In this document: in pieces, positions 12,383-31,247 of the stretch
How the letters are laid out: each line of letters starts with the position of its first letter
Position numbering within the stretch: the stretch's first letter is position 1
Sequence record: ON075799
DNA length: 64,000 bases
Source: Escherichia phage vB_EcoM_TH18
Direction: 5' to 3' (one strand)
Position numbers and translations under genes: made by a program
Notes under the pieces: model-generated
The model's input: only the letters and a program-made list of their open reading frames with translations
The model's database searches: none
Told to the model about the DNA's origin: nothing

Positions 12383-12395
12383 AATGATTATGGTG

Positions 12396-15382: not shown

Positions 15383-15452
15383 CGAGAATGCTACTCATAA
15401 CACCACACAATGTCAACCCCTCCCATATGTCCCCATTTCAGGGACATTATGA

Positions 15453-15976: not shown

Positions 15977-16255
15977 ATGGCCTACGATGAAAATTCTATC
16001 CGGGTGCTGTCACCTGATGATATCAAACAACGATTTGACTGGGTACGCATCGGGGATTTGGTTCACGAATATAACTTACCTGTGGATTGGGTCAGACGTG
16101 GCTTTGAAGCGTGCTGGAGGTTAAACATCGAGCCTGATTATTTTATCAACAAGTACATCCTCAAGCAGGATGTTGAACCTGTACCTGATTTCGAGGTTGT
16201 TTTTAAAGAGATTGTTATGGAGTCTCGATTCAAGGATCAGGTATGCTCCAGGTAG
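15977..16255 (+). CDS. hypothetical protein (92 aa)
   Basis: Start refined to MAYDEN with RBS ggaggag 6 nt upstream. Confidence 0.55.
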   Translation: MAYDENSIRVLSPDDIKQRFDWVRIGDLVHEYNLPVDWVRRGFEACWRLNIEPDYFINKYILKQDVEPVPDFEVVFKEIVMESRFKDQVCSR

Positions 16256-16373
16256 TCTCAAAAACGCACCTGTGAATCAGATTTGCAAATGTAGTCCACA
16301 GATAGGTAAAAACATCAACGCAAATCGATTCTCCGCTGGATCTACAGAGTAAATTTTCAATTTTCGGAGAAAA

Positions 16374-16748
16374 ATGATGAAACGTACCATGACAGACAAA
16401 GAGCGCGAAATTGCCCTCCAGTTAGCAAGAGAAAAAAGAGAGCAACAAAAGCGAGAATGGGCTGCGCTGGCAGAAGCGGGAAAAATACGCCAACATTTCG
16501 CTGACGCTAATCACTGGGCAAGGCTCCGTAGTCAATACGGGATTACATCTCCGTACAAATTAGCTCCGGCAGAAAGTGATCATGGCATGAAAATTCTTAG
16601 ACGAACGATCAGACTGACCGGAGGATTCGAGTGGTTCAATGAGTCTTTCGGTATGGACATCAAGCAGTTTGTCAGAATGAACCCTACGTGGTCTGCATAC
16701 GCTATTCAGGGGGTAATCCTTGAAGAGTGGGATGATTATCAGAATTGA
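16374..16748 (+). CDS. hypothetical protein (124 aa)
   Basis: ORF from six-frame track with ggaga RBS. Confidence 0.55.
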   Translation: MMKRTMTDKEREIALQLAREKREQQKREWAALAEAGKIRQHFADANHWARLRSQYGITSPYKLAPAESDHGMKILRRTIRLTGGFEWFNESFGMDIKQFVRMNPTWSAYAIQGVILEEWDDYQN

Positions 16749-16841
16749 TTTTTGTTGTGTTTCTGGTAATCAACTGGTATGTTTATTACAGGGAGTGATA
16801 ACCACTCCCGTGTTACTTGTTTTATACAGGAGTATTAATAT

Positions 16842-17465
16842 ATGTCTTGGCCTTTTTTGATTTATCTTATTGATGTTCTTAGCACAGACGGGAAGTATGA
16901 AGGTTGGGGATTCTTGTTGTTTCTGTGTGTTATTGTATACATGCTGATGCGTATTCTTCCAAAGATCCTCGAAGAACCTAAGCTGGATATCTATCCAGGA
17001 CAAAACCTTGTTTTAGCACAAGACTGGTCACGATTTAAAGCCGGAGATGTTCTTGTTGTGAAGGATACTGCGGGTGGTGATGTTCTTCTTCGCCACGGGG
17101 AGGAATCACTTGGTTCTTGGGTGAGTAAGAGCATTTTACGAAAAGTGTGTAAACTTGATGAAAAACAAGGATATATCCCACAGCAAGATGCGATGGAAAC
17201 ACCGCGAAAGTTAACTGTGATTGCTATGGTTGTCTGTGTGATGGGTATTCTATACGCCAACTTCATGCCGCAGAAAGAGACTTCTTACAAGATGCTTGCT
17301 GCGTATGTTGGTCAAAACATTGTAGAATCTCCAAGGACTCAACAACTTGCGGATAGCACAATCAAGTATCTGGATGCCCAAATCAAGAAGTACACTCAAG
17401 AATTAGGTGATACTTCAGGAGTGGCGAGTAAGGATTCTAAGCCTGGTGAGAAGGTGAAAGAGTGA
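16842..17465 (+). CDS. hypothetical membrane protein (207 aa, 2-3 predicted TM segments)
   Basis: Hydrophobic stretches FLLFLCVIVYMLM and LTVIAMVVCVMGILYANF; aggag RBS. Confidence 0.55.
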   Translation: MSWPFLIYLIDVLSTDGKYEGWGFLLFLCVIVYMLMRILPKILEEPKLDIYPGQNLVLAQDWSRFKAGDVLVVKDTAGGDVLLRHGEESLGSWVSKSILRKVCKLDEKQGYIPQQDAMETPRKLTVIAMVVCVMGILYANFMPQKETSYKMLAAYVGQNIVESPRTQQLADSTIKYLDAQIKKYTQELGDTSGVASKDSKPGEKVKE

Positions 17466-17827
17466 TGGGAAAGTCATTTGAAACAAAACGAATAGCGTTG
17501 GACTTTGATGATACTTTCACGCTAGAGCCTGAGAGATGGTCACAATTTGTTGCTCTATTTGCAGCAAAGGATTCAGGTTGGTGTGTTAAATTTGTTACTT
17601 ATCGCTTCGATTCAGATGATAACTCTGATATCCAGTTTTGGGCTGAAAAACTAGGTATCGGAATAATTTATTGCAATGGTGTCCAGAAAGCACAAGTTTG
17701 TGCGGAACTTGGCTGGATCCCAGATGTGTGGATAGACGATTTTCCTGTTCTCATCCCTGTGAAACAACAACTACAGGGTATGCTTTTAGGGATAGAAAAT
17801 AACGAAGAAAAACATAATGTTAAGTAG
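17462..17827 (+). CDS. hypothetical protein (121 aa)
   Basis: ORF from six-frame track; start overlaps upstream stop (translational coupling). Confidence 0.5.
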   Translation: MMGKSFETKRIALDFDDTFTLEPERWSQFVALFAAKDSGWCVKFVTYRFDSDDNSDIQFWAEKLGIGIIYCNGVQKAQVCAELGWIPDVWIDDFPVLIPVKQQLQGMLLGIENNEEKHNVK

Positions 17828-18064
17828 TTTAAGGGGGAGTGTTGAGAAGCATTGCGTATTACAAATTCAAATGTTGGGAGAAACTCTATGATTTGAGCTA
17901 CCTTATTTTTGGGAATCTCCCTGTCACTGAAGACATTAAACACAAAATGTATCTTTCATACATGAAATACCGTCTCCACGAAAGAAAGAGTGGTTGATGA
18001 GAATGTTATAATGCCCTGTAGAGAGTGTCTACAGGGCTTTAATGCTTAATCACAGGACTTACCA

Positions 18065-18895
18065 ATGACAAGTATTTTACACACGACAGGTATTTTACCA
18101 CACTATCAGAAGGAATATTCTTTCCCTGATTTATCTGGGGATATGTTGCAAATATACGACAAAGTGCAAGGCGAAGTGTCGGAGCTACAATTTAGTTCAG
18201 ACCCTGATGATGAGCAAGAGTTTGATAAACAGATTTGTCGTGTAGAAAACGAGCTTATAGAGCTACAATCATTAGCCAAATCAACAGATATCGAAGACTT
18301 AAGGCGACACGTTGAGAATCTTGAAAATTTAGTGTTCGGGCTTTCGCAAGCTATTATAAACATTGGTGAAATTGCTAAAATTGCCTCTGACAAGTTGCCA
18401 GACAACACAGAAGATATTGAAGAAGCGTTGCAGAATATCTGCTATGAAGGAAGTTCTGCTCTCGGTTGTGAATGTAATCTAGGAAATGCTCTTGAAGAGC
18501 GTGGGTGGAACCTGTTCCAAAAAACTTTTGTTTATCGTGTTATTGGTGGTGAGTTTCCTCGGCTCATACAACTTAATGCCCTTTTTGGAAACAGCCAGGG
18601 TGATAATATTGCATTAGGTATTGATGGCTGGTTCTGTTTAAGAGGTAAAGAATTAGCATTTTGTTGTGGCGATGATGTGTTAATTCTCAATGCTTATAAA
18701 CCAGGTGTTGAAATAACAACAAAATTAAATGGTAAGTCCACTAAATTTCACACCAGAGAGTTGGAAGATATTTTCATGGACATATTTGATCCTACAGAAG
18801 ACGAAATTCTTATGTATGAAATGACCAGTGGAAAAAGATATGATATTTTGTCGTGGAGAAATATTTTTGGCAAGAAGAGAAAGCCTGTAGCGTGA
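18065..18895 (+). CDS. hypothetical acidic protein (276 aa)
   Basis: Long ORF from six-frame track on the plus strand. Confidence 0.55.
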   Translation: MTSILHTTGILPHYQKEYSFPDLSGDMLQIYDKVQGEVSELQFSSDPDDEQEFDKQICRVENELIELQSLAKSTDIEDLRRHVENLENLVFGLSQAIINIGEIAKIASDKLPDNTEDIEEALQNICYEGSSALGCECNLGNALEERGWNLFQKTFVYRVIGGEFPRLIQLNALFGNSQGDNIALGIDGWFCLRGKELAFCCGDDVLILNAYKPGVEITTKLNGKSTKFHTRELEDIFMDIFDPTEDEILMYEMTSGKRYDILSWRNIFGKKRKPVA

Positions 18896-19158
18896 TATTT
18901 TATCACTGATATTTGTTTTCCCTGTGATATTTTTGTCACAGGGAAAGTTTCAATAGTGGATATTTTCTTGATACTTTAAATTCCTACCAGAAATTTAAAT
19001 TCTGTAAATTTAGAAAACTATTACTTATAGGCGTTTCGACACAATTTTGTTATGAAAGCCTTGTTTTTATATAAAAACCTGTTTTAGCATGGGTGGTAGG
19101 ATCACACTCCATACTACCTTTATTCCTACAGATGAGCATCTCCATGTTCGAAAACTCG

Positions 19159-19370
19159 GTTCTCGATCGAAAATTCATTTTCCAGATCGTATTTGCTCCT
19201 TACGGAGAAAATTTTTTAGGGCTACAAGTTTCAGTTCTCGATCGGTTTTTCGATTTCAAAATCGTATTTGTTTTTTCTTGCGAAATTTTTCGCACGCTCA
19301 GTTCTCGATCGAGTTTTCAAAATCGAAATCGTATTTGCTCTATAGTGCGAAAAAATTTTTATGGGTATCA
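19159..19370. repeat. three tandem ~67-75 bp repeats with internal dyads
   Basis: Units begin gttctcgatcg at ~19159, 19234, 19301 and share ...atcgtatttg...gcgaaa; internal palindrome tgcgaaatttttcgca. Confidence 0.75.
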
Positions 19371-19742
19371 TAATTCTATCACACACTTAAACGCAAAGCA
19401 ACATAAAAATTTTTGTTGAATGATAATCATTCTCATTTGCAGAATGACAGGTAGGATCAGTGTCTTATCCTCCCCCGTTGACCATCGTCGCCGTAGTTTG
19501 AAGTTTATAGCCGTTCTCGGCTTATCTCTTTGTTAGAGATAGATTACCATAATTGATAAAGAAAGCAAGCGTTAATTGTAATCTTTACGTTTCTTTACAA
19601 ATTTATTTTAGACAAACTACCGGCGATCGACCTTCCAACCAGCGCCCTGGTATGTTAGCCCCGCCTTTACGCCGTGGGGATGGCGTTGCCTCTTCTGTAT
19701 GTTAGGCATTATAAGCCCAATCCCTGGGCTTGTCAAACATTT

Positions 19743-20006
19743 TTATTTATTTTCTTGCCAGGTTAGGACACCTAACCAGAAATGGCAATCACCTTTCGCC
19801 CATTGTGGTATATTGCTTTCTTTCCCACCTTCCCGCGCCCAGGAATAACCGCCCGTGTAACTTTGTAATTGATAACTATCCTCGACCTTATAATCTGACA
19901 GGTTGAGAACTGTTTCTACCTTTAAGCCTGTTGCGCTCGCTACCTGGTGGATAGTTCCCCCTTGCCAGCCTAACGCGTGCATAAGGTGCATTGTGGTAGT
20001 GGTCAT
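19743..20006 (-). CDS. hypothetical protein (87 aa)
   Basis: ORF from six-frame track with gagga RBS upstream on the minus strand; isolated between plus-strand blocks. Confidence 0.45.
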   Translation of the reverse strand: MTTTTMHLMHALGWQGGTIHQVASATGLKVETVLNLSDYKVEDSYQLQSYTGGYSWAREGGKESNIPQWAKGDCHFWLGVLTWQENK

Positions 20007-20102
20007 TTTTTCTATTCCTCTGTTAGTTGGTTGTCAGAATTGTATCTATAACCAACCAGGTTAGCAAGATAAATAAAAGAGAAAAATTTTTTAAAAATAC
20101 TA

Positions 20103-20131
20103 TTGACAGCTAGATAGTATAGGTCTACTAT
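20103..20131 (+). promoter_or_regulatory. sigma70-like promoter (TTGACA, 17-nt spacer, TACTAT)
   Basis: Consensus -35 and near-consensus -10 about 55 nt upstream of the ATG at 20186. Confidence 0.55.
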
Positions 20132-20185
20132 GTGCACATCAAGGCGATACACCGCCACCAACCAACCTAAAAGGGGTAAATCAAT

Positions 20186-20809
20186 ATGAAAACCATTGTT
20201 AACGCTGAGAATGTATCTTTCGATAAGTTGAACGACGCACAAAAAGAAAAAGCCATTGATCTTATTCGTGAGCGTGAAAGAGAAAGCGCCGATAATTTCT
20301 TTGCGGATAGTGTCATTGAAGACTATAAGAATGACATTTTACCAGAGTACGGGATCGATGACGCGGTTATCTATTGGTCAGGATTCTGGTCGCAAGGCGA
20401 CGGCGCATCTATCAGCACTGATCGCGTGGATATTGAAAAATTTTTAAGAAAAGTTAAATCTTTAACAAAATTTAGAGGTATCCGCAAACTATTTGATCTT
20501 GGTGAATATAGTCAGTTATACGCAAGCATTGAGCGGGATAATTACAGCCGCTACCATCATGAAAATACTGTTTCCGGTTACGTTGAAACTATGTATTGTG
20601 GTGATTTAACGGCAAAACAGGAAGATCTAGCCAATCAGCTTGAAAACTTGTTAACTGAAACGATCCGCGATCTGTCTTGTAAACTTTACAGAGATTTAGA
20701 ATCAGCCTATGATGACCAGTTTACAGATGAAGCCATCACCGAATCAATTGAAGCCAATGATTATCGTTTTGATATTGATGAAGATGGAGAAGTTTACGCT
20801 ATCGCTTAA
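20186..20809 (+). CDS. hypothetical acidic protein (207 aa)
   Basis: ORF with RBS aaaggggtaaatcaat-ATG and own promoter. Confidence 0.6.
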   Translation: MKTIVNAENVSFDKLNDAQKEKAIDLIRERERESADNFFADSVIEDYKNDILPEYGIDDAVIYWSGFWSQGDGASISTDRVDIEKFLRKVKSLTKFRGIRKLFDLGEYSQLYASIERDNYSRYHHENTVSGYVETMYCGDLTAKQEDLANQLENLLTETIRDLSCKLYRDLESAYDDQFTDEAITESIEANDYRFDIDEDGEVYAIA

Positions 20810-20896
20810 AAGTACTTGCATTCAGTTTTAAAATAGTATTATACTACTAAAACAGGACGGGGAACTGCTCCCCGTCACATTCAGGAGATCATCAAA

Positions 20897-21109
20897 ATGG
20901 CTAATATTCGCACCTTGTTAAAAAATGCAAAGCAAGTTTTATTTTCCGATCACGATTATTTCAATAAAGACATTACAGGCGTAAAGAATATCAAAGACGT
21001 AAAAAATGTCATGGGTATCTATTGCAATATGAAGCGAGTAGGCACATTTGGCAATAAAGTATTATATCAGGCAGGTGACTATAATTTTACTTTGACAATT
21101 ATTTCATAA
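20897..21109 (+). CDS. hypothetical protein (70 aa)
   Basis: ORF with RBS caggaga; GC hairpin in 5' UTR. Confidence 0.5.
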   Translation: MANIRTLLKNAKQVLFSDHDYFNKDITGVKNIKDVKNVMGIYCNMKRVGTFGNKVLYQAGDYNFTLTIIS

Positions 21110-21174
21110 AACCACTTGCAAAGTTATATAGCTCTGTTATACTACCAACATTGACAAACGAGAGGTAAATAAAA

Positions 21175-21531
21175 ATGGCAATCCAGGCAATCATGTTAGA
21201 ACTTACAGATTTCCGTAATACTGTAAAAAATTTATCTAAGAAACAGGTTGACAATATCATCAACGGATACCGTAGCAAGATTAAAGATCTTCCGCTTAAA
21301 CGCGATCAACATGCGGCTAATATGATGTTTAATGCTATGATTAAAAAGATGATCCAATGTGATCTTTCTCTGGCTTATGAATACGCTGGCGATCTCTTTG
21401 CAACGTATAACAAGCCCGTGCTAGGTATGAGCACCACGGAAGAATTACACGCCTTAAATCTGCGGCAAGATGCTTGGGATAATATGCACCGCGTTATGGT
21501 GTGGGTAGAAAGCGGTAAAATTTATCAATAA
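21175..21531 (+). CDS. hypothetical protein (118 aa)
   Basis: ORF with RBS gagaggtaaat. Confidence 0.55.
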   Translation: MAIQAIMLELTDFRNTVKNLSKKQVDNIINGYRSKIKDLPLKRDQHAANMMFNAMIKKMIQCDLSLAYEYAGDLFATYNKPVLGMSTTEELHALNLRQDAWDNMHRVMVWVESGKIYQ

Positions 21532-21586
21532 AAGTAGTTGACTTTTAGTTATGCCGTGATAGAATACACGGCATAGATAAGAGAAA
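21531..21586 (+). promoter_or_regulatory. promoter with dyad operator-like element, copy 1 of a 56-nt direct repeat
   Basis: TTGACT-17-TAGAAT with inverted repeat atgccgtg...cacggcat bracketing the -10; near-identical copy at 25765-25820. Confidence 0.6.
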
Positions 21587-21607
21587 CTACTTATCAGAGT
21601 TTAAAAG

Positions 21608-21826
21608 ATGAAAAATATTACGGGTAAAACCGAACTATTAAAGGCGCTTTCTGTTGGTGAGTCAGCTTTATGGGTATGTGAAAAAGATCGCCTACCATCG
21701 CGAGAGATGGCCTTATTTAAGGCTTTATCTCTGAAGCTGAAAATTAAATTATCCCAAAAATTAGCGGTTGTTGCCGCACCGAGGGAAACCGCTTTCAGTG
21801 TTGTAATGGTTAAACGGTTGGAGTAG
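21608..21826 (+). CDS. hypothetical protein (72 aa)
   Basis: ORF downstream of the repeat promoter; RBS weak. Confidence 0.45.
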   Translation: MKNITGKTELLKALSVGESALWVCEKDRLPSREMALFKALSLKLKIKLSQKLAVVAAPRETAFSVVMVKRLE

Positions 21827-21912
21827 AAAAAAATTAAAAATTATCTTGACAAGCAAAACAGCAAAAATTAAACTTACACACAGTTAAACAAACAATATTG
21901 ACGAGGTAAATC

Positions 21913-22284
21913 ATGAAACAGTTAACCGCTTCCCAAAAAACAATGATCCGTGAGTATGTTTTAAATTCTCTTTCTTTTGATCTTGAATCTGATCTCAAAC
22001 AAGATCAGATTCAAGAATTAAAAAACCGCTTTGAATCTGAATACTGGTACGATAGCAACAAGAAACGCTATCAAAATGATAAAGTACAAGGCCTTAAAAA
22101 CTGGCTACAAGGCTTGCCAAGCGGTGTTGATATTGATTTCACTTATTACGATATTGAGCAACGCCTTAAGGATTTTGGAATCATCACCGACACGACCAGA
22201 GAAAGCACCATTGAAAAATATGTTTCTGAGTGGTGGGATCTAGTAGCGCCGTTTTATGTGGGTCTGATCGTAAACTTAAAATAA
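21913..22284 (+). CDS. hypothetical protein (123 aa)
   Basis: ORF with RBS gaggtaaatc and upstream TTGACA-17-TAAACT. Confidence 0.55.
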   Translation: MKQLTASQKTMIREYVLNSLSFDLESDLKQDQIQELKNRFESEYWYDSNKKRYQNDKVQGLKNWLQGLPSGVDIDFTYYDIEQRLKDFGIITDTTRESTIEKYVSEWWDLVAPFYVGLIVNLK

Positions 22285-22361
22285 TTCTTGAAAACTGTTT
22301 TAAATTGGCTTAAATTAAAGGGGTGAATTTAATCACCCCCAACATGAAAGAGGTTAATCAA

Positions 22362-22673
22362 ATGAATACTTATTTTTCTACTCGTTCACTTGCACGCATT
22401 GCAGCGAAAGAAACAGGCGGTAAAGTTTTAGACAATGGCAAAGATTCACCGATCGGTAAACGTTGGCAGGTTATCCCCGGTTATGTTGTCGAAGCCTCCC
22501 AGGATACAGCAAAACAACGCGCGGAGATGGAAAATAAACCAGTAGTTACCTTATCCATCGGCAAGCGTAGCAATGTAGCGAATAAAGCCCGTAAGGCGCT
22601 TTATTACGCCATCAATTACGCAAGAAATAATAAAACTGTACCAGTTTATCATAAGCGTTCATTTAAGAAATAA
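22362..22673 (+). CDS. hypothetical basic protein (103 aa)
   Basis: Start refined to MNTYF (RBS agaggttaatcaa); ORF-track start is a GTG inside the 5' UTR hairpin. Confidence 0.5.
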   Translation: MNTYFSTRSLARIAAKETGGKVLDNGKDSPIGKRWQVIPGYVVEASQDTAKQRAEMENKPVVTLSIGKRSNVANKARKALYYAINYARNNKTVPVYHKRSFKK

Positions 22674-22743
22674 TTTTTAATTAGATAAAAAAGCGCCCTA
22701 GGAAATGGGCGCTAAACAAAAACACTTAAAGAGGTAAATTATT

Positions 22744-23094
22744 ATGACTAATATTGCAGAAGCTTTTCAAAAAGCTATCGAAAATAAAAACGCTGAGTTG
22801 TCTTTAACTTCTCTGGATTTTACGGATGTGTACGGTAACACTTATTTTGTTTATGAGCTTGCTTTTACTTGTCCTGAGTTAAAAACATGGGAAACGTTGC
22901 ATAAATCTCGCGAGCTGCAATATGGTTATGGCGATCATGTTCTTCATGTTGCAATGAAAGACCTTTCAACTATCGCCGAGGTAAAATCTGAGGCCGCATA
23001 TATTACCCGTTGGGCGCATGACAACGGCTTAAAAATTAGTGTCAACAAGCGCACCAATTGCCGGAAAAAAGATTTAAAACAGTTTATCGCTTGA
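22744..23094 (+). CDS. hypothetical protein (116 aa)
   Basis: ORF with RBS agaggtaaatt; GC hairpin in 5' UTR. Confidence 0.55.
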
Positions 23095-23119
23095 TCCTGT
23101 TAATCATCTTGGTGGTTGT

Positions 23120-23470
23120 ATGATTCAGTTTTATATAATCATCGCGGCGCTTGCAATTTACTTAGGATTGCACAAAAAAGTATTCAGGTTAATTCTCTGG
23201 TTTTATTACGAGTACAGGATCAGAATGGTTTTCCATTATATTGAATACTCTTTCCACGGTGAGAGATACCACACAAGGAGATCCGGCCCATTAAATGATC
23301 TTGAGGGAAACGGTTTAATCTGTGAGGTTAAAAAGCGTGGCGGGAAAATTCTTTACCACAAAGAGGGCACTTTTGATTATATTGATGAGGTGATTAATTT
23401 TAGGCAACAAGCCGTAAAAGATCACGCAAGCAAAATAATCAACGGCAGCTATAAACGCAAAGCGGGGTAA
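23120..23470 (+). CDS. hypothetical protein with N-terminal TM helix (116 aa)
   Basis: N-terminus MIQFYIIIAALAIYLGL hydrophobic. Confidence 0.5.
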   Translation: MIQFYIIIAALAIYLGLHKKVFRLILWFYYEYRIRMVFHYIEYSFHGERYHTRRSGPLNDLEGNGLICEVKKRGGKILYHKEGTFDYIDEVINFRQQAVKDHASKIINGSYKRKAG

Positions 23471-23471
23471 T

Positions 23472-23654
23472 ATGCGGAATTTTGAAAAAATTGTTAAAGC
23501 TAATCGCCTGGAATACGGGGAAACAGACGAAAAACGGGAACGGGTAGGCAAACGCCACAAGCCTAAAAAGGTTCCTAAATTGTGGTGCCCTGATAAATAC
23601 GACCACAAATTAAAACAACGCATCGCTGAAAAACAGCGATTAAATGCAAGATAA
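23472..23654 (+). CDS. hypothetical basic protein (60 aa)
   Basis: ORF immediately followed by a rho-independent terminator. Confidence 0.45.
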   Translation: MRNFEKIVKANRLEYGETDEKRERVGKRHKPKKVPKLWCPDKYDHKLKQRIAEKQRLNAR

Positions 23655-23660
23655 CAGACA

Positions 23661-23686
23661 AGGCCGGAACTATCCGGCCTTTTTAG
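23661..23686 (+). terminator. rho-independent terminator
   Basis: aggccgga-actat-ccggcct followed by TTTT. Confidence 0.7.
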
Positions 23687-23873
23687 CACCTAGTAGCGCC
23701 TGTAACGATTAAAAAGGCCAACGGTGGCATGATGCACCACAAAATAAAATAGCTCGTTAGAGAGTGTTTTAGAGGCCTTAAAATCGATCCGAAAAATATC
23801 TATAAAAATGCTTGCAATGCTTTCCCGCTATCGTTATAGTGTTCCCAACAAGCAAGCAAACGAGGTAACGGCA

Positions 23874-24011
23874 ATGATTGAGATTCTTAAAAATCCTATT
23901 TTGTGTGGTATGGTTGTTTCTGTGTCACTTCCGATCGTGCTGTTAGTCGTTAGCGAAATAGATGATTTTATTTTCAATAAAAGACTTGCCAACAAGTCAA
24001 AAACAAATTAA
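23874..24011 (+). CDS. small membrane peptide (45 aa)
   Basis: Start refined to MIEIL with RBS gaggtaacggca; hydrophobic core LCGMVVSVSLPIVLLVV. Confidence 0.4.
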   Translation: MIEILKNPILCGMVVSVSLPIVLLVVSEIDDFIFNKRLANKSKTN

Positions 24012-24048
24012 TATAGTACCAACATACTAACTAGCGAGGTGATTTAAT

Positions 24049-24267
24049 ATGTTTGGTTTTATTGTTCTATCTTGTTCTCTTTCTGTTACTGCTGCAAAGG
24101 TAGAATGTAACTACACTGTAAAAGAGACTTTTAATGATGAAAAGTCTTGCAATGTATACGAAAATAATTATAAACTAGGAGACGGGGAGCAGTTCGGGAT
24201 CTGTGATGAATTAAAGGACGGTATCAAGAAAGGCGATAAGCGCCCGATCTTGGTCCTGAAAAAATAA
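24049..24267 (+). CDS. small secreted or lipo-protein (72 aa)
   Basis: N-terminal hydrophobic segment MFGFIVLSCSLSVTAA; RBS gaggtga. Confidence 0.5.
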   Translation: MFGFIVLSCSLSVTAAKVECNYTVKETFNDEKSCNVYENNYKLGDGEQFGICDELKDGIKKGDKRPILVLKK

Positions 24268-24308
24268 TTTTTCTAATCATGTTGATCAATTTTTAAGAGG
24301 TGAATAAA

Positions 24309-24596
24309 ATGTTTGAAGTTTTCGCGGGTATGTGTTTTTATACAGCTTTGGCAATTCGTCAGTGTGATGATTATATCGTTGAATCATACGATGATCAGCT
24401 GACTTGCGAAATAGTCGCTAATGACTACGGCAAAAAAGATCGCTGGATTAATCCGGCTTGCATACCATCCCCAGAGGTAGAAGCCATGCCGGAAGGGGAA
24501 GAGGTATCAGATCCAGTTGTGGCGGTATCCTCCTTTTTCGTTGACAACCTGGACGCCCAAGAATTGATCGACATGTATGTAAAAAATCAAAAATAA
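24309..24596 (+). CDS. hypothetical acidic protein (95 aa)
   Basis: Start refined to MFEVF (RBS aagagg 8 nt upstream); ORF-track GTG start lies in the RBS. Confidence 0.5.
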   Translation: MFEVFAGMCFYTALAIRQCDDYIVESYDDQLTCEIVANDYGKKDRWINPACIPSPEVEAMPEGEEVSDPVVAVSSFFVDNLDAQELIDMYVKNQK

Positions 24597-24602
24597 CGCT
24601 TG

Positions 24603-24640
24603 ACGTTGATTTGTGCCGCTTTATAATAGGCGGCATAGGC
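24603..24640 (+). promoter_or_regulatory. sigma70-like promoter (TTGACG-17-TATAAT) with dyad around the -10
   Basis: Inverted repeat tgccgc...gcggca flanks TATAAT; shares CGGCATA motif with other promoters of this block. Confidence 0.5.
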
Positions 24641-24686
24641 AAGCGAAAGCGGATATAAATCTTAAACAAGTTAAGAGAGGTAAATC

Positions 24687-25007
24687 ATGGAACAAGCGAA
24701 TAAATTTTTCTTTCTGGCTGGGATCGTGGATAATGTGAAATGTGATTTCAAGCGTGAAAATGATAAGACGTTACTCACTTTCTGCGATATGCTTGATCAT
24801 GAGAATGCCGACACGTTACGAATCGAGATCCGCACGATAACCAATATCGACAATTTAAGCCGTTTAATTTATAAATCTCATTCTATAGCCTACAACCTGG
24901 AAACATCAACAAGCTGCCTCCAACAAGGAGAGAGCTTGCCCATTCTAAATAGTGCCGATGTATTTGGCGCGGTTGTTGCAATTGTAAATGATGTTTTTTC
25001 TCGTTGA
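24687..25007 (+). CDS. hypothetical protein (106 aa)
   Basis: ORF with RBS agagaggtaaatc. Confidence 0.55.
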   Translation: MEQANKFFFLAGIVDNVKCDFKRENDKTLLTFCDMLDHENADTLRIEIRTITNIDNLSRLIYKSHSIAYNLETSTSCLQQGESLPILNSADVFGAVVAIVNDVFSR

Positions 25008-25223
25008 TTGGTGTTAATATTATGTTAGAGAATATTGTGTTCTTGTGTGGTGTCGTTCTTGCTGTTGTGGTTGGCCTCCTGGCGACGATGGCGAATATTG
25101 TGATCTCAAACAACCTGGCAGGGTAAAAATTTTTAAAAATAGTATTGACATACTTGCGGCATATGGTATTATTTACCACATGAAGGGGCAAGATTGACTT
25201 GCCTCACTAACGAAAGGTAAATA

Positions 25224-25493
25224 ATGATGAACATTTCTAAAACTACTTTTAACTTTGCTAAAAAGCGCGGTATTGAGCTTGAGCTGATCGAAGCGGATGA
25301 TCGCTTGGTCCTGGCTTTTTATGAGGCTAAAAATGAATGTGAATGGATGTTCTCTTATAATGTTAATCATGATTGCCTAACATGGCGCGGCAATATCTAT
25401 CTTTCAAACGAAGTAAAAGAGGAGTTACCCGCCACGATCACGACTGAGAAAAAACTACGTGAGGTTATTGATTTCATCTCTAAAAATATCTAA
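25224..25493 (+). CDS. hypothetical protein (89 aa)
   Basis: ORF with RBS aaaggtaaat and TTGACA-17-TATTAT promoter upstream. Confidence 0.55.
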   Translation: MMNISKTTFNFAKKRGIELELIEADDRLVLAFYEAKNECEWMFSYNVNHDCLTWRGNIYLSNEVKEELPATITTEKKLREVIDFISKNI

Positions 25494-25540
25494 GATTACA
25501 TGAAAAGGGGCGAAAGCCCCTACCGAAGAAGGTAATAAAA

Positions 25541-25765
25541 ATGGATAAAGTAACAAAGATTGAGCATGAGGTAATTGACTTGGCACGGGCCAACAAGCCA
25601 TTTGATAAGATTTATTCTAAGGAGAATAAAGAGATCTTGAAAGACCTAACGCAAGGTCAAAAAGATGGCTTGCGCCGCTTATATCGTGAGGCGTATGACT
25701 ATTTTCGTTGGTGGGAAATAGAAGAGGCTAACGCGAAAATAGAAGGCCTAGAAAATTTAGTATAA
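25541..25765 (+). CDS. hypothetical protein (74 aa)
   Basis: ORF with RBS gaaggtaat; GC hairpin ggggcgaaagcccc in 5' UTR. Confidence 0.5.
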   Translation: MDKVTKIEHEVIDLARANKPFDKIYSKENKEILKDLTQGQKDGLRRLYREAYDYFRWWEIEEANAKIEGLENLV

Positions 25766-25820
25766 AAGTAGTTGACTTTTAGTTATGCCGTGATAGAATG
25801 CACGGCATAGATAAGAGAGA
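25765..25820 (+). promoter_or_regulatory. promoter with dyad operator-like element, copy 2 of the 56-nt direct repeat
   Basis: Differs from the 21531-21586 copy by a single base (tagaatG vs tagaatA). Confidence 0.6.
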
Positions 25821-25860
25821 CGGCACAAGCCATTGATTAAACTTAAAGAGGTAAATTATT

Positions 25861-26262
25861 ATGAATACTTACAAAACTGTTTTTAATTTCGACAATTTCA
25901 AAGCTATCTGCGACGACCAGATCGGCAAGTGCCGTAAAGAAAAAGGATTCTATAAATCTTATAAGTTGATTGCGGTTGTTGATGAAGAGATCACCGAAGT
26001 GGCAACGCTCAACCTGTACCACACTAACGCTACTAATTACGCTTGCTTATGGATGCACTGGGCCAATATTAAAGGTTGGGATCATGGCTATGTTGGCGGG
26101 AAAGCAAGCGGATACGGTTACAACAGGGAGGAGGCCGCGATCCATGTCGCAGCTAATAAACTCGGTATCACTGGCAACTGGTTTAACGGTGAACAATTGT
26201 TAGATGCAATGGCACGTAATTTTGATATGAAAGGCGCGAAGGTTATCTGCTGCAACGCGTGA
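25861..26262 (+). CDS. hypothetical protein (133 aa)
   Basis: ORF with RBS agaggtaaatt downstream of repeat promoter copy 2. Confidence 0.55.
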   Translation: MNTYKTVFNFDNFKAICDDQIGKCRKEKGFYKSYKLIAVVDEEITEVATLNLYHTNATNYACLWMHWANIKGWDHGYVGGKASGYGYNREEAAIHVAANKLGITGNWFNGEQLLDAMARNFDMKGAKVICCNA

Positions 26263-26309
26263 TCACTCAATAGCGGGGAATATTCCCCGCTTATAGATAG
26301 GGCATAATC

Positions 26310-26768
26310 ATGATTTACGATCTTAAATATTACGACGAATTGAGTATTGCAGCACAATTAACCGCCCGTGTCAATATTATAGCAGACCTGGAAAATCACC
26401 ATAGAAAGCGCATAGTCCAGACTATAGCCAGTTTTAAAAATGATCCTCATAAAGTGATTAATGACACGAAGCACATTCAACGCCTCATAAACGGCGCAAA
26501 GACGCTTTATAGTGTACGTCATTACGGGGATGATTACCTTATAAAGTTTATTCGTGATAATCGTTTGATCTTTACCCCTGGTGGTAGCTATATAACCTAT
26601 AGCGACGGCTTTATGATGATTATTGGAGGTAAGGAATACACCCCCACGGCCTCACAACAAAAAGCATTGAGAGAGCTTTATATAGCCATTAATGAGCGTG
26701 GTCAATCATATCATGATTGGTTATATAGAATGCACCACAAAATAAAAATTTTTATGATTCCCGCTTGA
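26310..26768 (+). CDS. hypothetical protein (152 aa)
   Basis: ORF from six-frame track; GC hairpin agcgggga...tccccgct upstream. Confidence 0.5.
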   Translation: MIYDLKYYDELSIAAQLTARVNIIADLENHHRKRIVQTIASFKNDPHKVINDTKHIQRLINGAKTLYSVRHYGDDYLIKFIRDNRLIFTPGGSYITYSDGFMMIIGGKEYTPTASQQKALRELYIAINERGQSYHDWLYRMHHKIKIFMIPA

Positions 26769-26846
26769 CACCTACATAAAAACGCCTTATTATCTATCTC
26801 ATAAGGCGGGGAGCGGTTCCCCGCCACACTTAAGAGGTAAATAATC

Positions 26847-27236
26847 ATGCGTAACCTGGTTCATGTTTCCAACGTTGAAAAATTCCAATCTTTACAGGCT
26901 ATCGTAAACGATACAGCGCCTTTTATCGTTAAAGGCTTGATTGCCAGAATGCAACAGAAAAAACCTGAAATCTGGGCTAATTATTGCCTTGATAATGATG
27001 ATCAGGCTGCCGCTTTCATGGTTGGCGAACTGCTGGGAAGTGTAGGGAACATGCTACCGGAAAACATCGCAGAAGAGATCACCTACCGTTATAATATGGC
27101 GATAACTTATCAGGAAGTCGCACAATTTAACCTGATGGATGACGACGAACAACAGGATCAGGAAATTTTCTGGGAGTATGCCGACCGCCAAGCCGTTTTT
27201 GATGAGCGGTTAGAGATGTACTATAACGAATGGTAA
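26847..27236 (+). CDS. hypothetical acidic protein (129 aa)
   Basis: ORF with RBS agaggtaaat; promoter TTGACA-17-TTATTA with dyad cgccttat/ataaggcg. Confidence 0.55.
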   Translation: MRNLVHVSNVEKFQSLQAIVNDTAPFIVKGLIARMQQKKPEIWANYCLDNDDQAAAFMVGELLGSVGNMLPENIAEEITYRYNMAITYQEVAQFNLMDDDEQQDQEIFWEYADRQAVFDERLEMYYNEW

Positions 27237-27332
27237 TAAACAGGCCGCTAATATGCGGCCTTTAATTTTTCTATTGACAATATCGCACTAACCTTTAAAA
27301 TGTTCTTTGTTAAGTATCTTTAAAGGTGTAAC

Positions 27333-27512
27333 ATGTTCCAATCAATCATTGATATTCTATCAGTCGCTAATAACGTGATGAACGTAATTACAATGATTAA
27401 ACTTGTTGCGTGGTTTGTTTCCGGGGATTATCGCTATATTAAATGGCGCAAGCCAACCATAAAAGACGTAGTGAAGATCTCATTTGAAGCAATGACAGAA
27501 TATTATCTATAA
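27333..27512 (+). CDS. hypothetical small protein (59 aa), not in ORF track (<60 aa)
   Basis: ATG at 27333 with RBS aaaggtg; translation MFQSIIDILSVANN... Confidence 0.4.
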   Translation: MFQSIIDILSVANNVMNVITMIKLVAWFVSGDYRYIKWRKPTIKDVVKISFEAMTEYYL

Positions 27513-27868
27513 CGATTATTTTTTGTTGACATCCAAAAGATTTTTCAATACCATTGATCACATAAGGGCGGCAATGATGCTGCCCACAACTGAAAGAGAA
27601 ATCACCATGGCGCTTAAAAAACTAACAAGTAATACACGTTGGGATGAAATCGGCGGGGAAGTATACATTTTTACCCGTAAACCAGGTGACCAAAAATGAT
27701 CAAAGGCTTTTACTTGCCACCCTGCAACCATAGACCTGATAAAAAGGGAAGGTTTACGCGAAGCAGTAGCAAGAAGTTTACTGATCCCTTATAAAAAATA
27801 GTTTGAAATTAATTTCACTATTGATAAAATATTATATAAAACTTTAACCTAAAAAGGGGTAAATTAAT

Positions 27869-28069
27869 ATGAAACGTTTTACTTATGGTGTGGTTGATGG
27901 TTATGTATCTAACCGTTTTTACAATACCGAGCGTGGTGCTAAAAATGCGGCTACCCGTGAACATGGCAATAGTGTAAATTTACAAGTTGGCTATATTAGC
28001 AAAATTAGCGGTATGTTTATTCCGGTTGCTCAACGCGGCATGTATTGCATAAACTGGATGCCAATGTAA
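27869..28069 (+). CDS. hypothetical protein (66 aa)
   Basis: ORF with RBS aaaggggtaaat. Confidence 0.5.
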   Translation: MKRFTYGVVDGYVSNRFYNTERGAKNAATREHGNSVNLQVGYISKISGMFIPVAQRGMYCINWMPM

Positions 28070-28084
28070 AAAGGAGTAATAAAA

Positions 28085-28276
28085 ATGGATGTATCACAAG
28101 TTAGAAAGGTATTAGCAGCGTTACGCTATCACAATCATAGCAAGGTGAAGAATGATCCTGATTATGTTGATTCAAGTCTGGAGGAAGACACCTTGCAAGC
28201 TATAAGCCATATGCAGGAATTGCTTAAGCGTATGACAGAGAAGAACAGATCTGACTATATAGGTGACGAGATCTAA
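28085..28276 (+). CDS. hypothetical protein (63 aa)
   Basis: ORF with RBS aaaggagtaat. Confidence 0.5.
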   Translation: MDVSQVRKVLAALRYHNHSKVKNDPDYVDSSLEEDTLQAISHMQELLKRMTEKNRSDYIGDEI

Positions 28277-28372
28277 TCTTTACAATCTCGCCTATTGACA
28301 CCGGATCACGCTTACATTATTATCTATCTTGTAGGGCAAGCAATACCGCAAGCCCACAAAGAGGACAATAAA

Positions 28373-28741
28373 ATGAGCAAATCAGCAATTAAAGCACTTG
28401 AAAAAGCGCAAAAAGTGATCGCTACTTCCACCACTGGCGCAAGTATTAATCTGATCGCTTACTTGGAAGATGAAACTATCCGTAAAAATTGGCGTAATAC
28501 TGATTTGCTGGCTTGCTTATTGATTAATAGTGTTGCTAATGCTTTCCAGTGTGAAACAGCCGAGAGCCTGGAAGAAAACTTGTTTGACAATATGGATCAA
28601 GCCATTGAAACCTATATCCAATCAAATCTGGATAGCTGGAACAGTAAAACATGGCCCGACAGCTTACGCGATACAACTGACCAACTGATCCGCCTTGCGG
28701 TGATGGTTGAACGCGATAACGTTTACAGCCGCACAAAGTAA
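28373..28741 (+). CDS. hypothetical protein (122 aa)
   Basis: Start refined to MSKSAIK with RBS aagagga; promoter TTGACA-17-TATTAT upstream. Confidence 0.55.
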   Translation: MSKSAIKALEKAQKVIATSTTGASINLIAYLEDETIRKNWRNTDLLACLLINSVANAFQCETAESLEENLFDNMDQAIETYIQSNLDSWNSKTWPDSLRDTTDQLIRLAVMVERDNVYSRTK

Positions 28742-28750
28742 GATAGTACA

Positions 28751-28779
28751 AAGGGCGCTTAATGCGCCCTTTCTTTTTG
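28751..28779 (+). terminator. strong rho-independent terminator closing the plus-strand block
   Basis: aagggcgc-ttaa-tgcgccctt followed by TTCTTTTT. Confidence 0.75.
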
Positions 28780-29165
28780 CCCTAACAAACATGATAAGTT
28801 TTATCTATCAAAACACCACACAGAAAGAAAGTGAATAAAACGCGGTATCGAGCTAAACGAGGGTGGGCAATACAACGGCAAGGCTAAACAATTAAGGCTG
28901 TTATAACGCGATTTAGGCCGCTTAAAATCGATCCCCACCACAAACAACACCCACAAAATGACCAAAACGACACAACATGACTTAAATGATAACCATTCCC
29001 AACAACATAAGCATTTTTATGCAATTTGAGTGAATATCTATTTAAATGATAATGACTCTCAACAACAAACTAACACGACCGAAGCGATTCAATCGCCTAC
29101 CACAAAATTAATCACTTGTAAAGAGTAATTTGAAAAAAGCTGCGTAGGTGGCGCGACCGTAGGGA

Positions 29166-29440
29166 GCGACACAATAACGCAGTAGTAGCCCCTCACCCCT
29201 CCTTCCAGTCGCCCCCGGTATCGGGGCAGCGTTATTGTGTCGCTAAGCGACAACGCGTTAACAATTTTGCAAGATTTTATTAATACTTTAACTGTTATAA
29301 TTTTATTGCAAAATTGTTAACCTACTGCGTTATTGTGTCACGTAGTGATTAGTTACATATGTAACTAACAGCTATCACTGCAAAATTGTGTCACGTAGTG
29401 ATTAGCTGAGAATCAGCTAACCCGTAAAACGGGCTAAATT
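29166..29440. repeat. cluster of inverted and direct repeats flanking an AT-rich core (candidate origin or regulatory hub)
   Basis: gcgacacaataacgcagtag at 29166-29185 with reverse-complement copies at 29229-29243 and 29321-29340; 16-bp dyad 29257-29272/29306-29321; direct repeat attgtgtcacgtagtgattag at 29332 and 29385; palindromes gttacatatgtaac and agctgagaatcagct. Confidence 0.7.
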
Positions 29441-30604
29441 GTGTCCGGTACGGATGAGATAATCTCTCATTAATCCCCGATTATTACGCAGTAAATCACC
29501 ATGAATCACCTGTTTTTAACCCTGTTATTGTGTTCTTGCCCAGGGATAACCGCTTACTATGCGGTTAAATGCTGTATAGTCGCTACGCGATTAAGCGCGA
29601 TGCGCTTAACCTGCAAAGCAGGCTTCTAAGTGCCTGAAATGCCAGATCAATTTGGTCACTGCGTGATCATGATTGCGACAATAATTTGCTTATGATTTGC
29701 TATTTATTTGTTTGTAGTTGGTTATAGTTGTTATGGTTTGTTTGTTAATAGTTGCTATAATTTTGCTTTATTTGATTTTATTTGTTAAACACCCTTTTAT
29801 CATTCCTCTTACATTTTCGCAATATTTATTTTTGTTATCGTTTTCCCTCATTTCATTTCGTTATTGAAAACAAGAATTATTATCAATGCGCCTTAACAGG
29901 CTGACAGGTCTGTTAGTGGGCTAGCTCTCTGTGTGGTTATGTGTCGGCTGTTATTGTTAGCTTGCTTATTGTTGTGTGGTGTATGTACCAGTTAACTAGT
30001 ACATTGTGTGGTGCGCATAACGTGTATTATGTTAAATCGCTAAGCCCACAAATCAGGTGACTTGTCAATAACAATAAGTGCTGTGTGCGGTAGGTCTGAC
30101 CTATCAGTGTGCCCCTTTGTTGTGTGGTGCTTCCAATGGCTGGTCTGCCTGCTGTCTGTGCTGCGTCAGGAATCGAGGGGACTCGATCGCAATAGCTGTA
30201 AGATATTTTGTAAAGATTCGTAGTTTTTCTTGACACCCACAATCGTCTGCCTAACCCTTCAGAGATAAATACTTCAGAGATTTATCTGGGCTTTTTACCC
30301 TTCAGGTATAGAGACGTGTGTTTTATCCCTCACTTCTGAGATAAAGCCGTAGATATTTTCACTCTTCACATCATGTGCAAGTTAATACATGTATGTCTTT
30401 ACAGACGGGGTGGGGTAACAATCAGGAAGTGGTCTGGCAGTGATAACGCACTGGATAAAAGCTCTGTGTGGATTGTCGATGATATTTGTGTGTGTGGGAA
30501 ATGCTGATAGGCAAGAGATAAGACACTTGTCTCCGGCAGGGGTGGGGTGTGGAAAAGAAATGGGCCTGTCCGACCCATTGTGTTACAGAGATGAAACGCC
30601 TATC

Positions 30605-30856
30605 TCACCATTGACCAGGTAAGCCAATATCAAGGCCAAATTCGTGACATTCATCCCAGTCAAGACTTTGATTCCAGTTTGTAACTGTTTGCTCTGTGTG
30701 GTGGGTGTGTGATGCTCTCTGTGACTGCTTGGGCATCTTTTTTGTCTGGGATTTCCCGAAGAGAGGTGTGTTGTCATTAAGTCTTCCGGCAGCCTTTTCA
30801 CCCTTTTTGACTTGTCTCCCACGGGCATTCCACTGCTCCAGTGTCCTGTAACACAT
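30605..30856 (-). CDS. possible small basic protein (83 aa)
   Basis: ORF with aggaga RBS ~9 nt upstream; lies in an otherwise low-complexity non-coding region. Confidence 0.3.
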   Translation of the reverse strand: MCYRTLEQWNARGRQVKKGEKAAGRLNDNTPLFGKSQTKKMPKQSQRASHTHHTEQTVTNWNQSLDWDECHEFGLDIGLPGQW

Positions 30857-31247
30857 AAAATGATTCTCCTGTAATATCTGGTGTGGGAATGATAGTGGAG
30901 AATGTCAGTCGTGTCAAGTAGGTTGCTCAGAGGCGCTATTATAAAAATTTTTTGGTGGCTTTCTGGGGCTTGTTGTGGGACTGTAAACAAGCTGTGGAGC
31001 CAGATGTGACGGGGCTTTCAGCCATGTTGTGTGTTGATAGCAAATAAGGATAAAATAATCAATATAAATGCGGATAAATGTTGTTTTATTGCGGTTGTGT
31101 GACTAGTGTGTCAATTCTTGATAGGCTATGTCTTGTACATATTTTGTACAATTGTGTGGTGTGTGGAGTTTGGGTGGCAATTCCCCAGACGGGGTAGGGT
31201 AGGTTATGGTGGGGAGCAGGGGCATGGTTAGCCCCATATGATCAGGG

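Follow-up and report, generated by a model that had tools for sequence, protein, structure and literature searches.

The 64,000-nucleotide stretch of Escherichia phage vB_EcoM_TH18 analysed here (ON075799; hereafter the window) is, on sequence comparison, part of a Vequintavirinae myophage of the genus Avunavirus, and carries, between the small genes of one plus-strand block, a series of short G/C-rich hairpins placed just ahead of ribosome-binding sites. These hairpins are strongly non-random, and the units in which they occur are best described as a PeSL-like family of promoter/5′ stem-loop/ribosome-binding site cassettes present in Vequintavirinae and Stephanstirmvirinae. Such a cassette has not previously been described for this phage group and resembles those known from T4-type phages. 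The reading that we favour, with somewhat better than even confidence, is that the hairpins act as 5′-terminal stem-loops shielding early messenger RNAs (mRNAs) from RppH and RNase E.

Cassettes of promoter, hairpin and ribosome-binding site

The plus-strand block (window positions ~15700-28800) comprises about 30 small hypothetical genes whose conservation across relatives is patchy. A census of the region 20810-28294 for perfect stems of at least 6 base pairs (bp), four or more of them G-C, closing a loop of 3-8 nucleotides (nt), returned 11 hairpins in the intergenic DNA (1708 nt), where dinucleotide shuffles gave 0.21 ± 0.45, and 2 in the 6852 nt of coding DNA of the block, against 0.93 expected. 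Eight plus-strand hairpins, beginning at 20856, 22320, 22692, 25185, 25506, 26272, 26805 and 27566, lack a U-run (0-3 T within the next 8 nt); their 3′ ends lie 6-16 nt ahead of a Shine-Dalgarno sequence and 18-30 nt ahead of an ATG. A first-pass annotation of the window had proposed that at least seven small genes carry G/C hairpins just upstream of the ribosome-binding site, most of them without a U-run, and is borne out on each of these points; every hairpin that it cited was found, some of them up to 10 nt from where it had placed them (true positions 20856-20876, 22320-22339, 25506-25521, 26805-26825 and 50522-50539). The eight elements are organized as follows, putative promoters being given as -35 hexamer, spacer length and -10 hexamer:

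20816-20899 (+), cassette: -35 TTGCAT at 20816-20821, 18-nt spacer, -10 TATACT at 20840-20845, 10 nt to hairpin GACGGGGA-actgc-TCCCCGTC at 20856-20876; Shine-Dalgarno AGGAG at 20883-20887, ATG at 20897
22288-22364 (+), ambiguous cassette: TTGAAA-17-TAAATT, the -10 just 3 nt ahead of hairpin GGGGTGA-atttaa-TCACCCC at 22320-22339; Shine-Dalgarno AGAGG at 22349, ATG at 22362
22692-22713 (+), promoterless hairpin AGCGCCC-taggaaat-GGGCGCT, 18 nt past the upstream stop codon and 30 nt ahead of the ATG at 22744
25145-25229 (+), cassette: TTGACA-16-TATTAT at 25145-25172, 12 nt to hairpin GGGGCAAG-attga-CTTGCCTC (one G·U pair) at 25185-25205; Shine-Dalgarno AAGGT at 25214, ATG at 25227
25468-25543 (+), cassette flagged by the first-pass annotation: weak promoter TTGATT-17-TAAGAT at 25468-25496, overlapping the end of the upstream gene, 9 nt to hairpin AGGGGC-GAAA-GCCCCT (GNRA tetraloop) at 25506-25521; Shine-Dalgarno AAGGT at 25529, ATG at 25541
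26272-26291 (+), promoterless hairpin AGCGGGGA-atat-TCCCCGCT, 9 nt past a stop codon and 18 nt ahead of the ATG at 26310
26765-26849 (+), cassette: TTGACA-17-TATTAT at 26765-26793, 11 nt to hairpin GGCGGGGA-gcggt-TCCCCGCC at 26805-26825; Shine-Dalgarno AGAGG at 26833, ATG at 26847
27526-27609 (+), cassette: TTGACA-17-TACCAT at 27526-27554, 11 nt to hairpin GGGCGGCA-atga-TGCTGCCC (one G·U pair) at 27566-27585; Shine-Dalgarno sequence, ATG at 27607

What the first-pass annotation had overlooked is that the hairpins are a sequence family, embedded in a repeated promoter-hairpin-ribosome-binding site cassette that is conserved across two phage subfamilies. The relatives compared were Av-05 (locus L002), which is 93% identical to the window (Escherichia phages 18-1-2, 19-1-2 and 24-2-1 being 100% identical to it), a contig from IMG/VR with 74% protein identity (L004), phage Paula (L016, LR865361), a Justusliebigvirus from a subfamily other than that of the window phage, the Seunavirus phages PVP-SE1 (L017) and GAP31 (L018), and the early region of rV5 (L023). 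The family core, CGGGRA-N3-5-TYCCCG, and the same architecture recur in L004, Paula, PVP-SE1, GAP31 and rV5, Paula having GGCGGGAAAtggTTTCCCGCC as a recurrent member, Seunavirus GCCGGGGA-nnn-TCCCCGGC and rV5 GGCGGGAAtgtTTCCCGCC; the family is common to rV5, PVP-SE1, GAP31 and phi92-like phages. Ten further loci (L006-L015), ~50-kb viral contigs with homologues of the gene at 25227, were set aside as uninformative; they have another promoter motif and the hairpins are absent from them.

In 33 family members taken from four genomes, the hairpin stops 21.4 ± 2.2 nt short of the ATG (18-24 nt in 32 of 33), with the Shine-Dalgarno sequence in between, and no member is followed by five or more T in the next 8 nt (0/33; mean 1.6 T). 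The spacing between the upstream stop codon and the hairpin is bimodal, at either ~7-18 nt, or 33-48 nt where a promoter is intercalated. A sigma70 match of at least 10 of 12 positions lies upstream in the sense orientation in 15 of the 33 members and in the antisense orientation in none, compared to 1.4% of random positions in the same blocks (binomial P ~1e-19), and the gap between the -10 hexamer and the hairpin is 9-13 nt in the promoter-linked members. As sequence matches, the window promoters at 25145, 26765 and 27526 score 10-11 of 12 and those at 20816 and 25468 score 8 of 12; the 20 nt upstream of the -35 hexamer average 77% AT (n=17), against 55-62% for whole loci. This spacing, which had also escaped the first-pass annotation, would place most of the hairpins at the 5′ end of a primary transcript rather than at an internal processing site. 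The stems are 6-10 bp long, with folding energies of about -9 to -18 kcal/mol, and when the predicted 5′ untranslated regions were folded on the assumption of a start site ~7 nt past the -10, 0-5 nt (median 3) were left unpaired at the 5′ end and the Shine-Dalgarno sequence was mostly open.

A cassette detector run over the whole window found complete cassettes only in the plus-strand small-gene block. The core hairpin pattern by itself was rejected as a diagnostic in that it is common in unrelated, GC-richer IMG/VR contigs, where 81 occurrences of the same core hairpin included 22 that were terminator-like and one that was cassette-like. No Rfam family covers the cassette hairpins. The genome papers on rV5 and Certrevirus list sigma70-like early promoters, concentrated in the small open reading frame (ORF) region of Vequintavirinae, but not the hairpins attached to them (PMC3606486, PMC7344957).

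Selection on base pairing in the coding strand

Between the window and Av-05, the stems differ by four compensatory pairs, two changes from Watson-Crick to sense-strand G·U, none to A·C, and one disruption. Among the individual members, the closing A-T pair of the 20856 hairpin is a sense-strand G·T wobble in Av-05, where its loop is also altered; the 25185 hairpin reads GGGGAGAG/CTCTCCCC in Av-05, a difference of two compensatory pairs plus a G·U to G-C change; and the orthologues of the 26272 hairpin in L004 and Paula, GGCGGGGA...TCCCCGCC, have the outer A-T replaced by G-C, again a compensatory change. Other members are more static: the 22320 hairpin has the same sequence in Av-05 behind a variable upstream spacer, the 22692 hairpin, which is preceded by an A5 run (a T-run on the antisense strand), differs in the loop only, and the stem of the flagged 25506 hairpin is unchanged while both of its flanks are altered, the -35 hexamer being TTGACT in Av-05. 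Substitutions between the window and Av-05 amount to 15.5% in loops and 5.8% in flanks, and between PVP-SE1 and GAP31 to 34% and 8.5%, respectively.

Covariation was scored on an orthologous alignment of the 26805 hairpin, which precedes the gene-26847 family, comprising 10 distinct sequences in three divergence tiers; an earlier MAFFT alignment of 30 paralogous hairpins was dropped because unequal stem lengths put it out of register, and was replaced by accounting of substitutions orthologue by orthologue and by this one alignment. In the gene-26847 family, 98.7% of alignment cells are paired and two pairs covary: four sequences have C-G, four G-C and one A-U at one of them, while seven have G-C and three A-U at the other. 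Covariation scores 0.25, compared with 0.087 for shuffled alignments (0/500), and slid controls were devoid of compensation.

The pairing is also strand-specific. Folded with 4-nt flanks, the sense strand is the more stable in 26 of 35 members and the antisense strand in 8 of 35 (p=0.0065, the members not being fully independent); in many of them the base of the stem is extended by a G·U and then a G-C pair that can form in the sense RNA only, and GNRA and UUCG loops read correctly on that strand only. Taken together, the compensatory changes, the sense-strand G·U pairs, the covariation and the folding bias favour the view that the hairpins are RNA structures of the coding strand whose pairing is under selection. 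Compensatory and G·U changes and the strand bias count against a double-stranded DNA operator as well as against terminators of the antisense strand.

A predicted role at the 5′ end of early messages, and its rivals

The cassette, in the order AT-rich stretch, sigma70 -35 and -10 boxes, 9-13 nt, G-run/C-run hairpin, 6-16 nt, Shine-Dalgarno sequence and ATG, would represent a standard expression unit for small, probably early, genes of the window phage and its relatives. If host RNA polymerase starts ~7 nt past the -10, the mRNA would open with 0-5 unpaired nt, followed by the hairpin and then by the ribosome-binding site. Such a base-paired 5′ end would be a poor substrate for RppH and for 5′-end-dependent RNase E and the message would thereby be stabilised, while a ribosome bound directly behind the hairpin would leave little single-stranded leader exposed; the position ~20 nt ahead of an ATG is roughly the 5′ edge of an initiating ribosome. 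Promoter activity, start site and stabilising effect are what we infer from sequence, and the stabilising role is proposed because RppH and RNase E need single-stranded 5′ termini, this requirement of RppH and of 5′-sensing by RNase E being the accepted explanation of stabilisation by 5′ stem-loops (PMC3997798, which cites Emory 1992, Bouvet and Belasco 1992 and Arnold 1998 for the effect). On read-through transcripts, and in promoterless copies (22692 and 26272 in the window, 5533 in Paula, 7401 in PVP-SE1), the hairpin may rather work as an intercistronic barrier that could block 3′ exonucleases and protect the 5′ end made by an upstream cleavage. The repeated cassettes may in addition double as exchange junctions for single-gene modules.

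The closest parallel in architecture is the PeSL (promoter-early stem-loop) cassette of RB49/phi1, PST and nt-1. PeSLs and the cassettes described here are both intergenic elements of ~70-100 bp. Each comprises a stretch rich in AT, an early promoter of sigma70 consensus, a stable G-run/C-run stem-loop and, at its 3′ end, the Shine-Dalgarno sequence and start codon of the next gene; both occur mainly among small ORFans and are repeated in the genome, PeSLs lie at the junctions of indels or replacements, as the present cassettes appear to do at two places, and G-T pairs have been noted in PeSL stem-loops as well (Arbiol et al. 2010, PMC2839356; Comeau et al. 2014, PMC4122927). However, most PeSL stem-loops are placed over the -35 and -10 boxes or between them, in the UP region, or immediately ahead of the start site, from where they could terminate upstream transcripts only, and were read as terminators, whereas the hairpins of the window lie beyond the expected start site, 9-13 nt from the -10, within the promoter's own transcript to about +25, and 18-24 nt from the ATG. 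PeSLs belong to T4-type phages and the present cassettes to Vequintavirinae and Stephanstirmvirinae; the likeness drawn between the two is one of architecture. With the stabilisers of the ompA and papA 5′ untranslated regions (Emory, Bouvet and Belasco 1992, as cited in PMC3997798) the hairpins share a stable stem near the 5′ end with the ribosome-binding site close behind, a structure conserved more than its sequence, and an expected protection from RppH and RNase E. They differ from them in being a serial, standardised module that serves many genes per genome and is common to phage subfamilies, with a 5′-terminal position and a stabilising effect that are here predicted. From phage T7, the class III transcripts, which carry a 5′ stem-loop, offer a further likeness.

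Several points weigh against a 5′-terminal stabiliser. The position of the 5′ end rests on consensus promoters and on the usual 7-nt rule, and a literature search returned no transcription start site or Term-seq data for Vequintavirinae or Stephanstirmvirinae. Two to three window copies are off-pattern, in that those at 22692 and 26272 are promoterless and the -10 of that at 22320 is only 3 nt away (a transcript from the promoter at 22288 would probably start inside the stem), and therefore a 5′-terminal role is not the whole story; the promoter of the flagged 25506 copy matches at only 8 of 12 positions. Where the leader is 4-5 nt long, the hairpin may shield the message from RppH and RNase E in part only. 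A PeSL stem-loop placed before lacZ cut expression as strongly as rrnB T1 (PMC2839356), and such GC hairpins can therefore act, in some contexts, as attenuators of transcription or expression. Finally, that sequence as well as structure is shared could reflect recognition by a protein or a recent spread of cassettes by recombination.

The lacZ experiment leads to the published reading of PeSLs, in which the stem-loops are transcriptional insulators or attenuators that limit read-through, leaving each small gene to be expressed chiefly from its own promoter; we hold this to be rather unlikely for the cassette hairpins. The RB49/phi1 stem-loops were read as attenuators, and one of them gave that reduction, comparable to rrnB T1 (PMC2839356); the promoterless copies, 7-18 nt past a stop codon, are placed as an insulator might be. 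So is a second class of repeats in the window, which has the -10 hexamer of a promoter as its loop:

21550-21575 (+), inverted repeat TATGCCGTG-aTAGAATr-CACGGCATA, the loop being the -10 hexamer of TTGACT-16-TAGAAT
24614-24635 (+), similar repeat TGCCGCTT-TATAAT-AGGCGGCA, with the -10 hexamer as loop
25784-25809 (+), near-identical copy of the repeat at 21550, with one compensatory G-C to A-T change in Av-05

These three repeats lie 15-18 nt past the upstream stop codon and match the placement of the commonest PeSL subclass (PMC2839356); like elements, over the -10 or in the promoter spacer, are found in PVP-SE1 (2025, 2442 and 3526, one of them in the spacer) and in GAP31. As judged from their position relative to the predicted start, second-class repeats are outside the promoter's own transcript and would act on read-through RNA or on promoter DNA. 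The family hairpins behave otherwise: none of the 33 has a U-tract, whereas the true terminators at the ends of blocks have one; most are downstream of the expected start site of their own promoter, where an efficient terminator would kill expression of their own gene; and their position is fixed relative to the downstream ATG (standard deviation 2.2 nt), not to the upstream stop codon (7-60 nt).

An extension of the stabiliser reading, which we regard as speculative and unlikely, would make the cassette a self-marking module: an Srd-like protein would speed the decay of host mRNA from which 5′-paired phage messages would be exempt, and the cassette would also be a portable linker able to move hairpin, ribosome-binding site and gene as a unit behind promoters already in place, even across the two subfamilies Vequintavirinae and Stephanstirmvirinae. 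The Srd protein of T4 stimulates the action of RNase E on host mRNA (Qi 2015, as cited in PMC4980113), and a phage that activates RNase E would gain from 5′-protected messages. rV5 gp11 is annotated as Srd-like, and the sibling phage 24-2-1 has a homologue of it, at 38% identity and 97% coverage, on a different scaffold; a search of the window for an Srd-like gene of the rV5 gp11 type found none, and the link to Srd is circumstantial.

The sharing of both sequence and structure across Vequintavirinae and Stephanstirmvirinae, at a fixed position adjoining the ribosome-binding site from which a protein, once bound, could prevent initiation, would also suit a binding site for a phage or host protein, such as a translational repressor or an early shut-off factor, on the CGGGRA...TYCCCG RNA hairpin or on a DNA palindrome at about +5 to +25. 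We think this improbable. The loops vary freely (tgg, gcggt, atag, cgc, acat, gaaa, atat), stem positions covary (GGCGGGG, GACGGGG, GCCGGGG), some stems are unrelated (GGGGCAAG, GGGGTGA, AGCGCCC), the G·U pairs speak against recognition as double-stranded DNA, and no candidate binding protein was identified. Lambda-type nut/boxB hairpins, whose conserved GNRA-like pentaloop is recognised by an N-type protein and which adjoin a boxA, were likewise discarded on the variability of the loops among members and orthologues, boxA and an N-like protein not having been searched for.

Signs of gene exchange at cassettes are also visible in the window. A single-gene module at 27565-27806 (+), absent from Av-05, is 92.6% identical to Paula against a background of ~77%, and its left junction is the first base of the hairpin (window 27565, Paula 5881), the promoter ahead of it being the resident, Av-05-like one; at 28271-28337 Paula and the window have the promoter in common and are similar up to the hairpin only (window 28337, Paula 7817). 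Together with intragenomic repeats (21517-21587 resembles 25752-25821, and GGCGGGAAAtggTTTCCCGCC occurs several times in Paula), a module starting exactly at a hairpin and a second junction at a promoter/hairpin boundary are what one would expect of DNA-level recombination linkers or selfish repeats kept by homologous recombination and devoid of RNA function, as PeSLs have been proposed to act (PMC2839356, PMC4122927). This account is nonetheless very unlikely to suffice, in that compensatory substitutions and fast-evolving loops show selection on pairing, the ATG spacing and the open Shine-Dalgarno sequence point to a role in expression, and intergenic junctions are to be expected anyway since only such recombinants are viable. 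The two junctions appear to coincide with cassettes, and two cases are no proof of a mechanism. We note that the annotated start codons are probably wrong at both places. The 27565-27806 copy has a TGG to TGA change that truncates the homologue of the 64-aa Paula_0074 to 30 aa, and the GenBank coding sequence 27577-27699 of an identical record has its start within the hairpin, probably a wrong call. At 28295 (gene 28295-28741, +; absent from Av-05), the annotated TTG start coincides with the -35 hexamer of a strong promoter match, TTGACA-17-TATTAT, and alignment with Paula suggests that the real start is the ATG at 28373, behind a degenerate hairpin.

That the hairpins are antisense-strand terminators, directed against convergent or spurious antisense transcription through the early block, is highly improbable. 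Sense A-runs do give antisense T-runs at 22692 (TTTTTAT), 25506 (TTTCAT) and 22320 (TTTAATTT), and the annotation of Paula has seven antisense 'terminators' at cassette hairpins, but the A-run is inconsistent (1-6 A per 8 nt), the wobble pairs and stem-base extensions favour the sense strand by 26 to 8 with substitutions going to G·U and not to A·C, the geometry is locked to the sense promoter and ATG, and GNRA and UUCG loops are meaningful in the sense strand only. The GenBank 'terminators' annotated opposite genes in Paula (for instance 2372-2395, 2629-2656, 4942-4965 and 5528-5553) are probably artefacts of a predictor run on palindromes.

A function as sites for RNase III or another double-strand-specific processing enzyme, for which only the intercistronic position and an analogy with the T7 early region speak, is scarcely credible given that RNase III substrates normally need about two helical turns, ~20 bp or more against stems of 6-10 bp, and that T7-type internal-loop features are missing. 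The suggestion of the first-pass annotation that the hairpins are processing or stability elements and not terminators is thus to be divided: stability in place of termination is largely upheld by the lack of a U-tract in the class, its non-randomness and the selection of structure on the coding strand, while processing finds no support, the stems being too short for RNase III.

Terminators, introns and the setting of the cassettes

Hairpins of other kinds in the window are the following:

5664-5684 (-), canonical terminator AACCCCGC...GCGGGGTT
18013-18037 (+), weaker terminator-like hairpin followed by a T-rich tract
23660-23681 (+), terminator-like hairpin followed by a T-rich tract
27242-27269 (+), terminator-like hairpin AGGCCGC-taatat-GCGGCCT followed by TTAATTTTT, with three loop substitutions and no stem substitution relative to Av-05
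28750-28772 (+), terminator-like hairpin followed by a T-rich tract
40765-40784 (-), canonical terminator AACCCGCT...AGCGGGTT
50522-50539 (-), nrdA-nrdB hairpin AAGGGGC-GAAA-GCCCCTT running on into TTTCAT (U5 altogether), 16 nt ahead of the nrdB ATG

Nearly all intergenic hairpins of the minus-strand blocks are terminator-like with a T-rich tract. The elements at 23660, 27242, 28750 and 50522 fit the intrinsic terminator fully, whereas the eight cassette hairpins lack the U-tract and lie mostly between a promoter and a ribosome-binding site. The two canonical terminators at 5664-5684 and 40765-40784 are each followed by an identical 12-mer, tttctttatgtg, that may be a shared signal such as a middle or late promoter element.

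The first-pass annotation had equated the hairpin between nrdA and nrdB with that at 25506. GGGGC-GAAA-GCCCC is indeed present there on the sense (minus) strand of nrdA and nrdB, with stem and loop as in 25506, but the element is of a different class in that its U-tract is conserved in relatives. In rV5, ECP2303, SSE121 and KP12 the stem is kept and the loop is UUCG, with a U4-5 tract in five lineages; by sequence, the loop has changed over between the two classic types of ultra-stable tetraloop. On account of the conserved U-tract the hairpin is terminator- or attenuator-like, and it would be either a small terminator/attenuator or a 3′-end stabiliser, a class apart from the promoter-proximal hairpins. 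Hairpins with C(UUCG)G and GNRA tetraloops were reportedly noted in the intergenic regions of phage T4 by Tuerk et al. in 1988. The flagged 25506 and the nrdA-nrdB hairpins are like these in having 5-7-bp G-C stems with a GAAA loop, although the latter also has a U-tract; most cassette members are unlike them, with loops of 3-5 nt outside the tetraloop class.

Three GNRA hairpins, at 628, 1953 and 47774, were considered as cassette members and rejected, as they belong to known or putative group I introns by Rfam matches. nrdD is interrupted by such an intron at 47774-48014 (-) (RF00028, 79.8 bits), the flanking ORFs 47967-49142 and 47235-47753 matching positions 1-263 and 263-415 of the Pfam NRDD profile. 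In the region of the terminase large subunit, Intron_gpI matches at 628-819 and 1953-2203 (-) score 31.6 and 33.9 bits, below the Rfam threshold; an HNH endonuclease ORF lies between them, ORF 1486-1902 (-) matches Terminase_6N and ORF 743-1528 (-) maps to the same region. At its 3′ end the nrdD intron is almost identical to the 3′ hairpins and flanks of these putative introns (atatRgtct...CTGCATGgtgaCATGCAG cagcacgtagtg), suggesting that the terminase gene may be split by two related introns.

As to the wider layout, positions 1-15650 hold minus-strand genes, including 16 tRNAs and genes of NAD/PRPP metabolism, and minus-strand genes resume from ~31240 on (nrdAB, nrdD and others). An element at 8411-8483 (-) is a tRNA by the Rfam model (53.4 bits) and is not in the ARAGORN list. 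Two gene-poor stretches, which might hold an origin of replication or non-coding RNAs, lie on either side of the main run of small genes:

18896-20185, gene-poor stretch with diverged direct repeats of ~70 nt (cagttctcgatcg...aaatcgtatttg)
28800-31240, gene-poor stretch

Tandem Repeats Finder reported no repeats in either stretch.

Since stabilisation by 5′ hairpins and promoter/stem-loop cassettes are both already known, the advance would be incremental rather than conceptual. If the stabiliser reading is true, rV5-like and phi92-like coliphages, which are common in therapy collections, would run many of their early ORFans from a standard three-part cassette with a 5′ RNA hairpin as its middle part. 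The cassette would then provide a rule for re-annotating the starts and promoters of ORFans, two probably mis-annotated starts having been found in this way, and a natural source of compact promoter, stabiliser and ribosome-binding site parts for use in E. coli. It would also make testable the questions of how lytic phages spare their own early mRNAs amid the destruction of those of the host, and whether PeSL-type shuffling of genes extends beyond T4-type phages.

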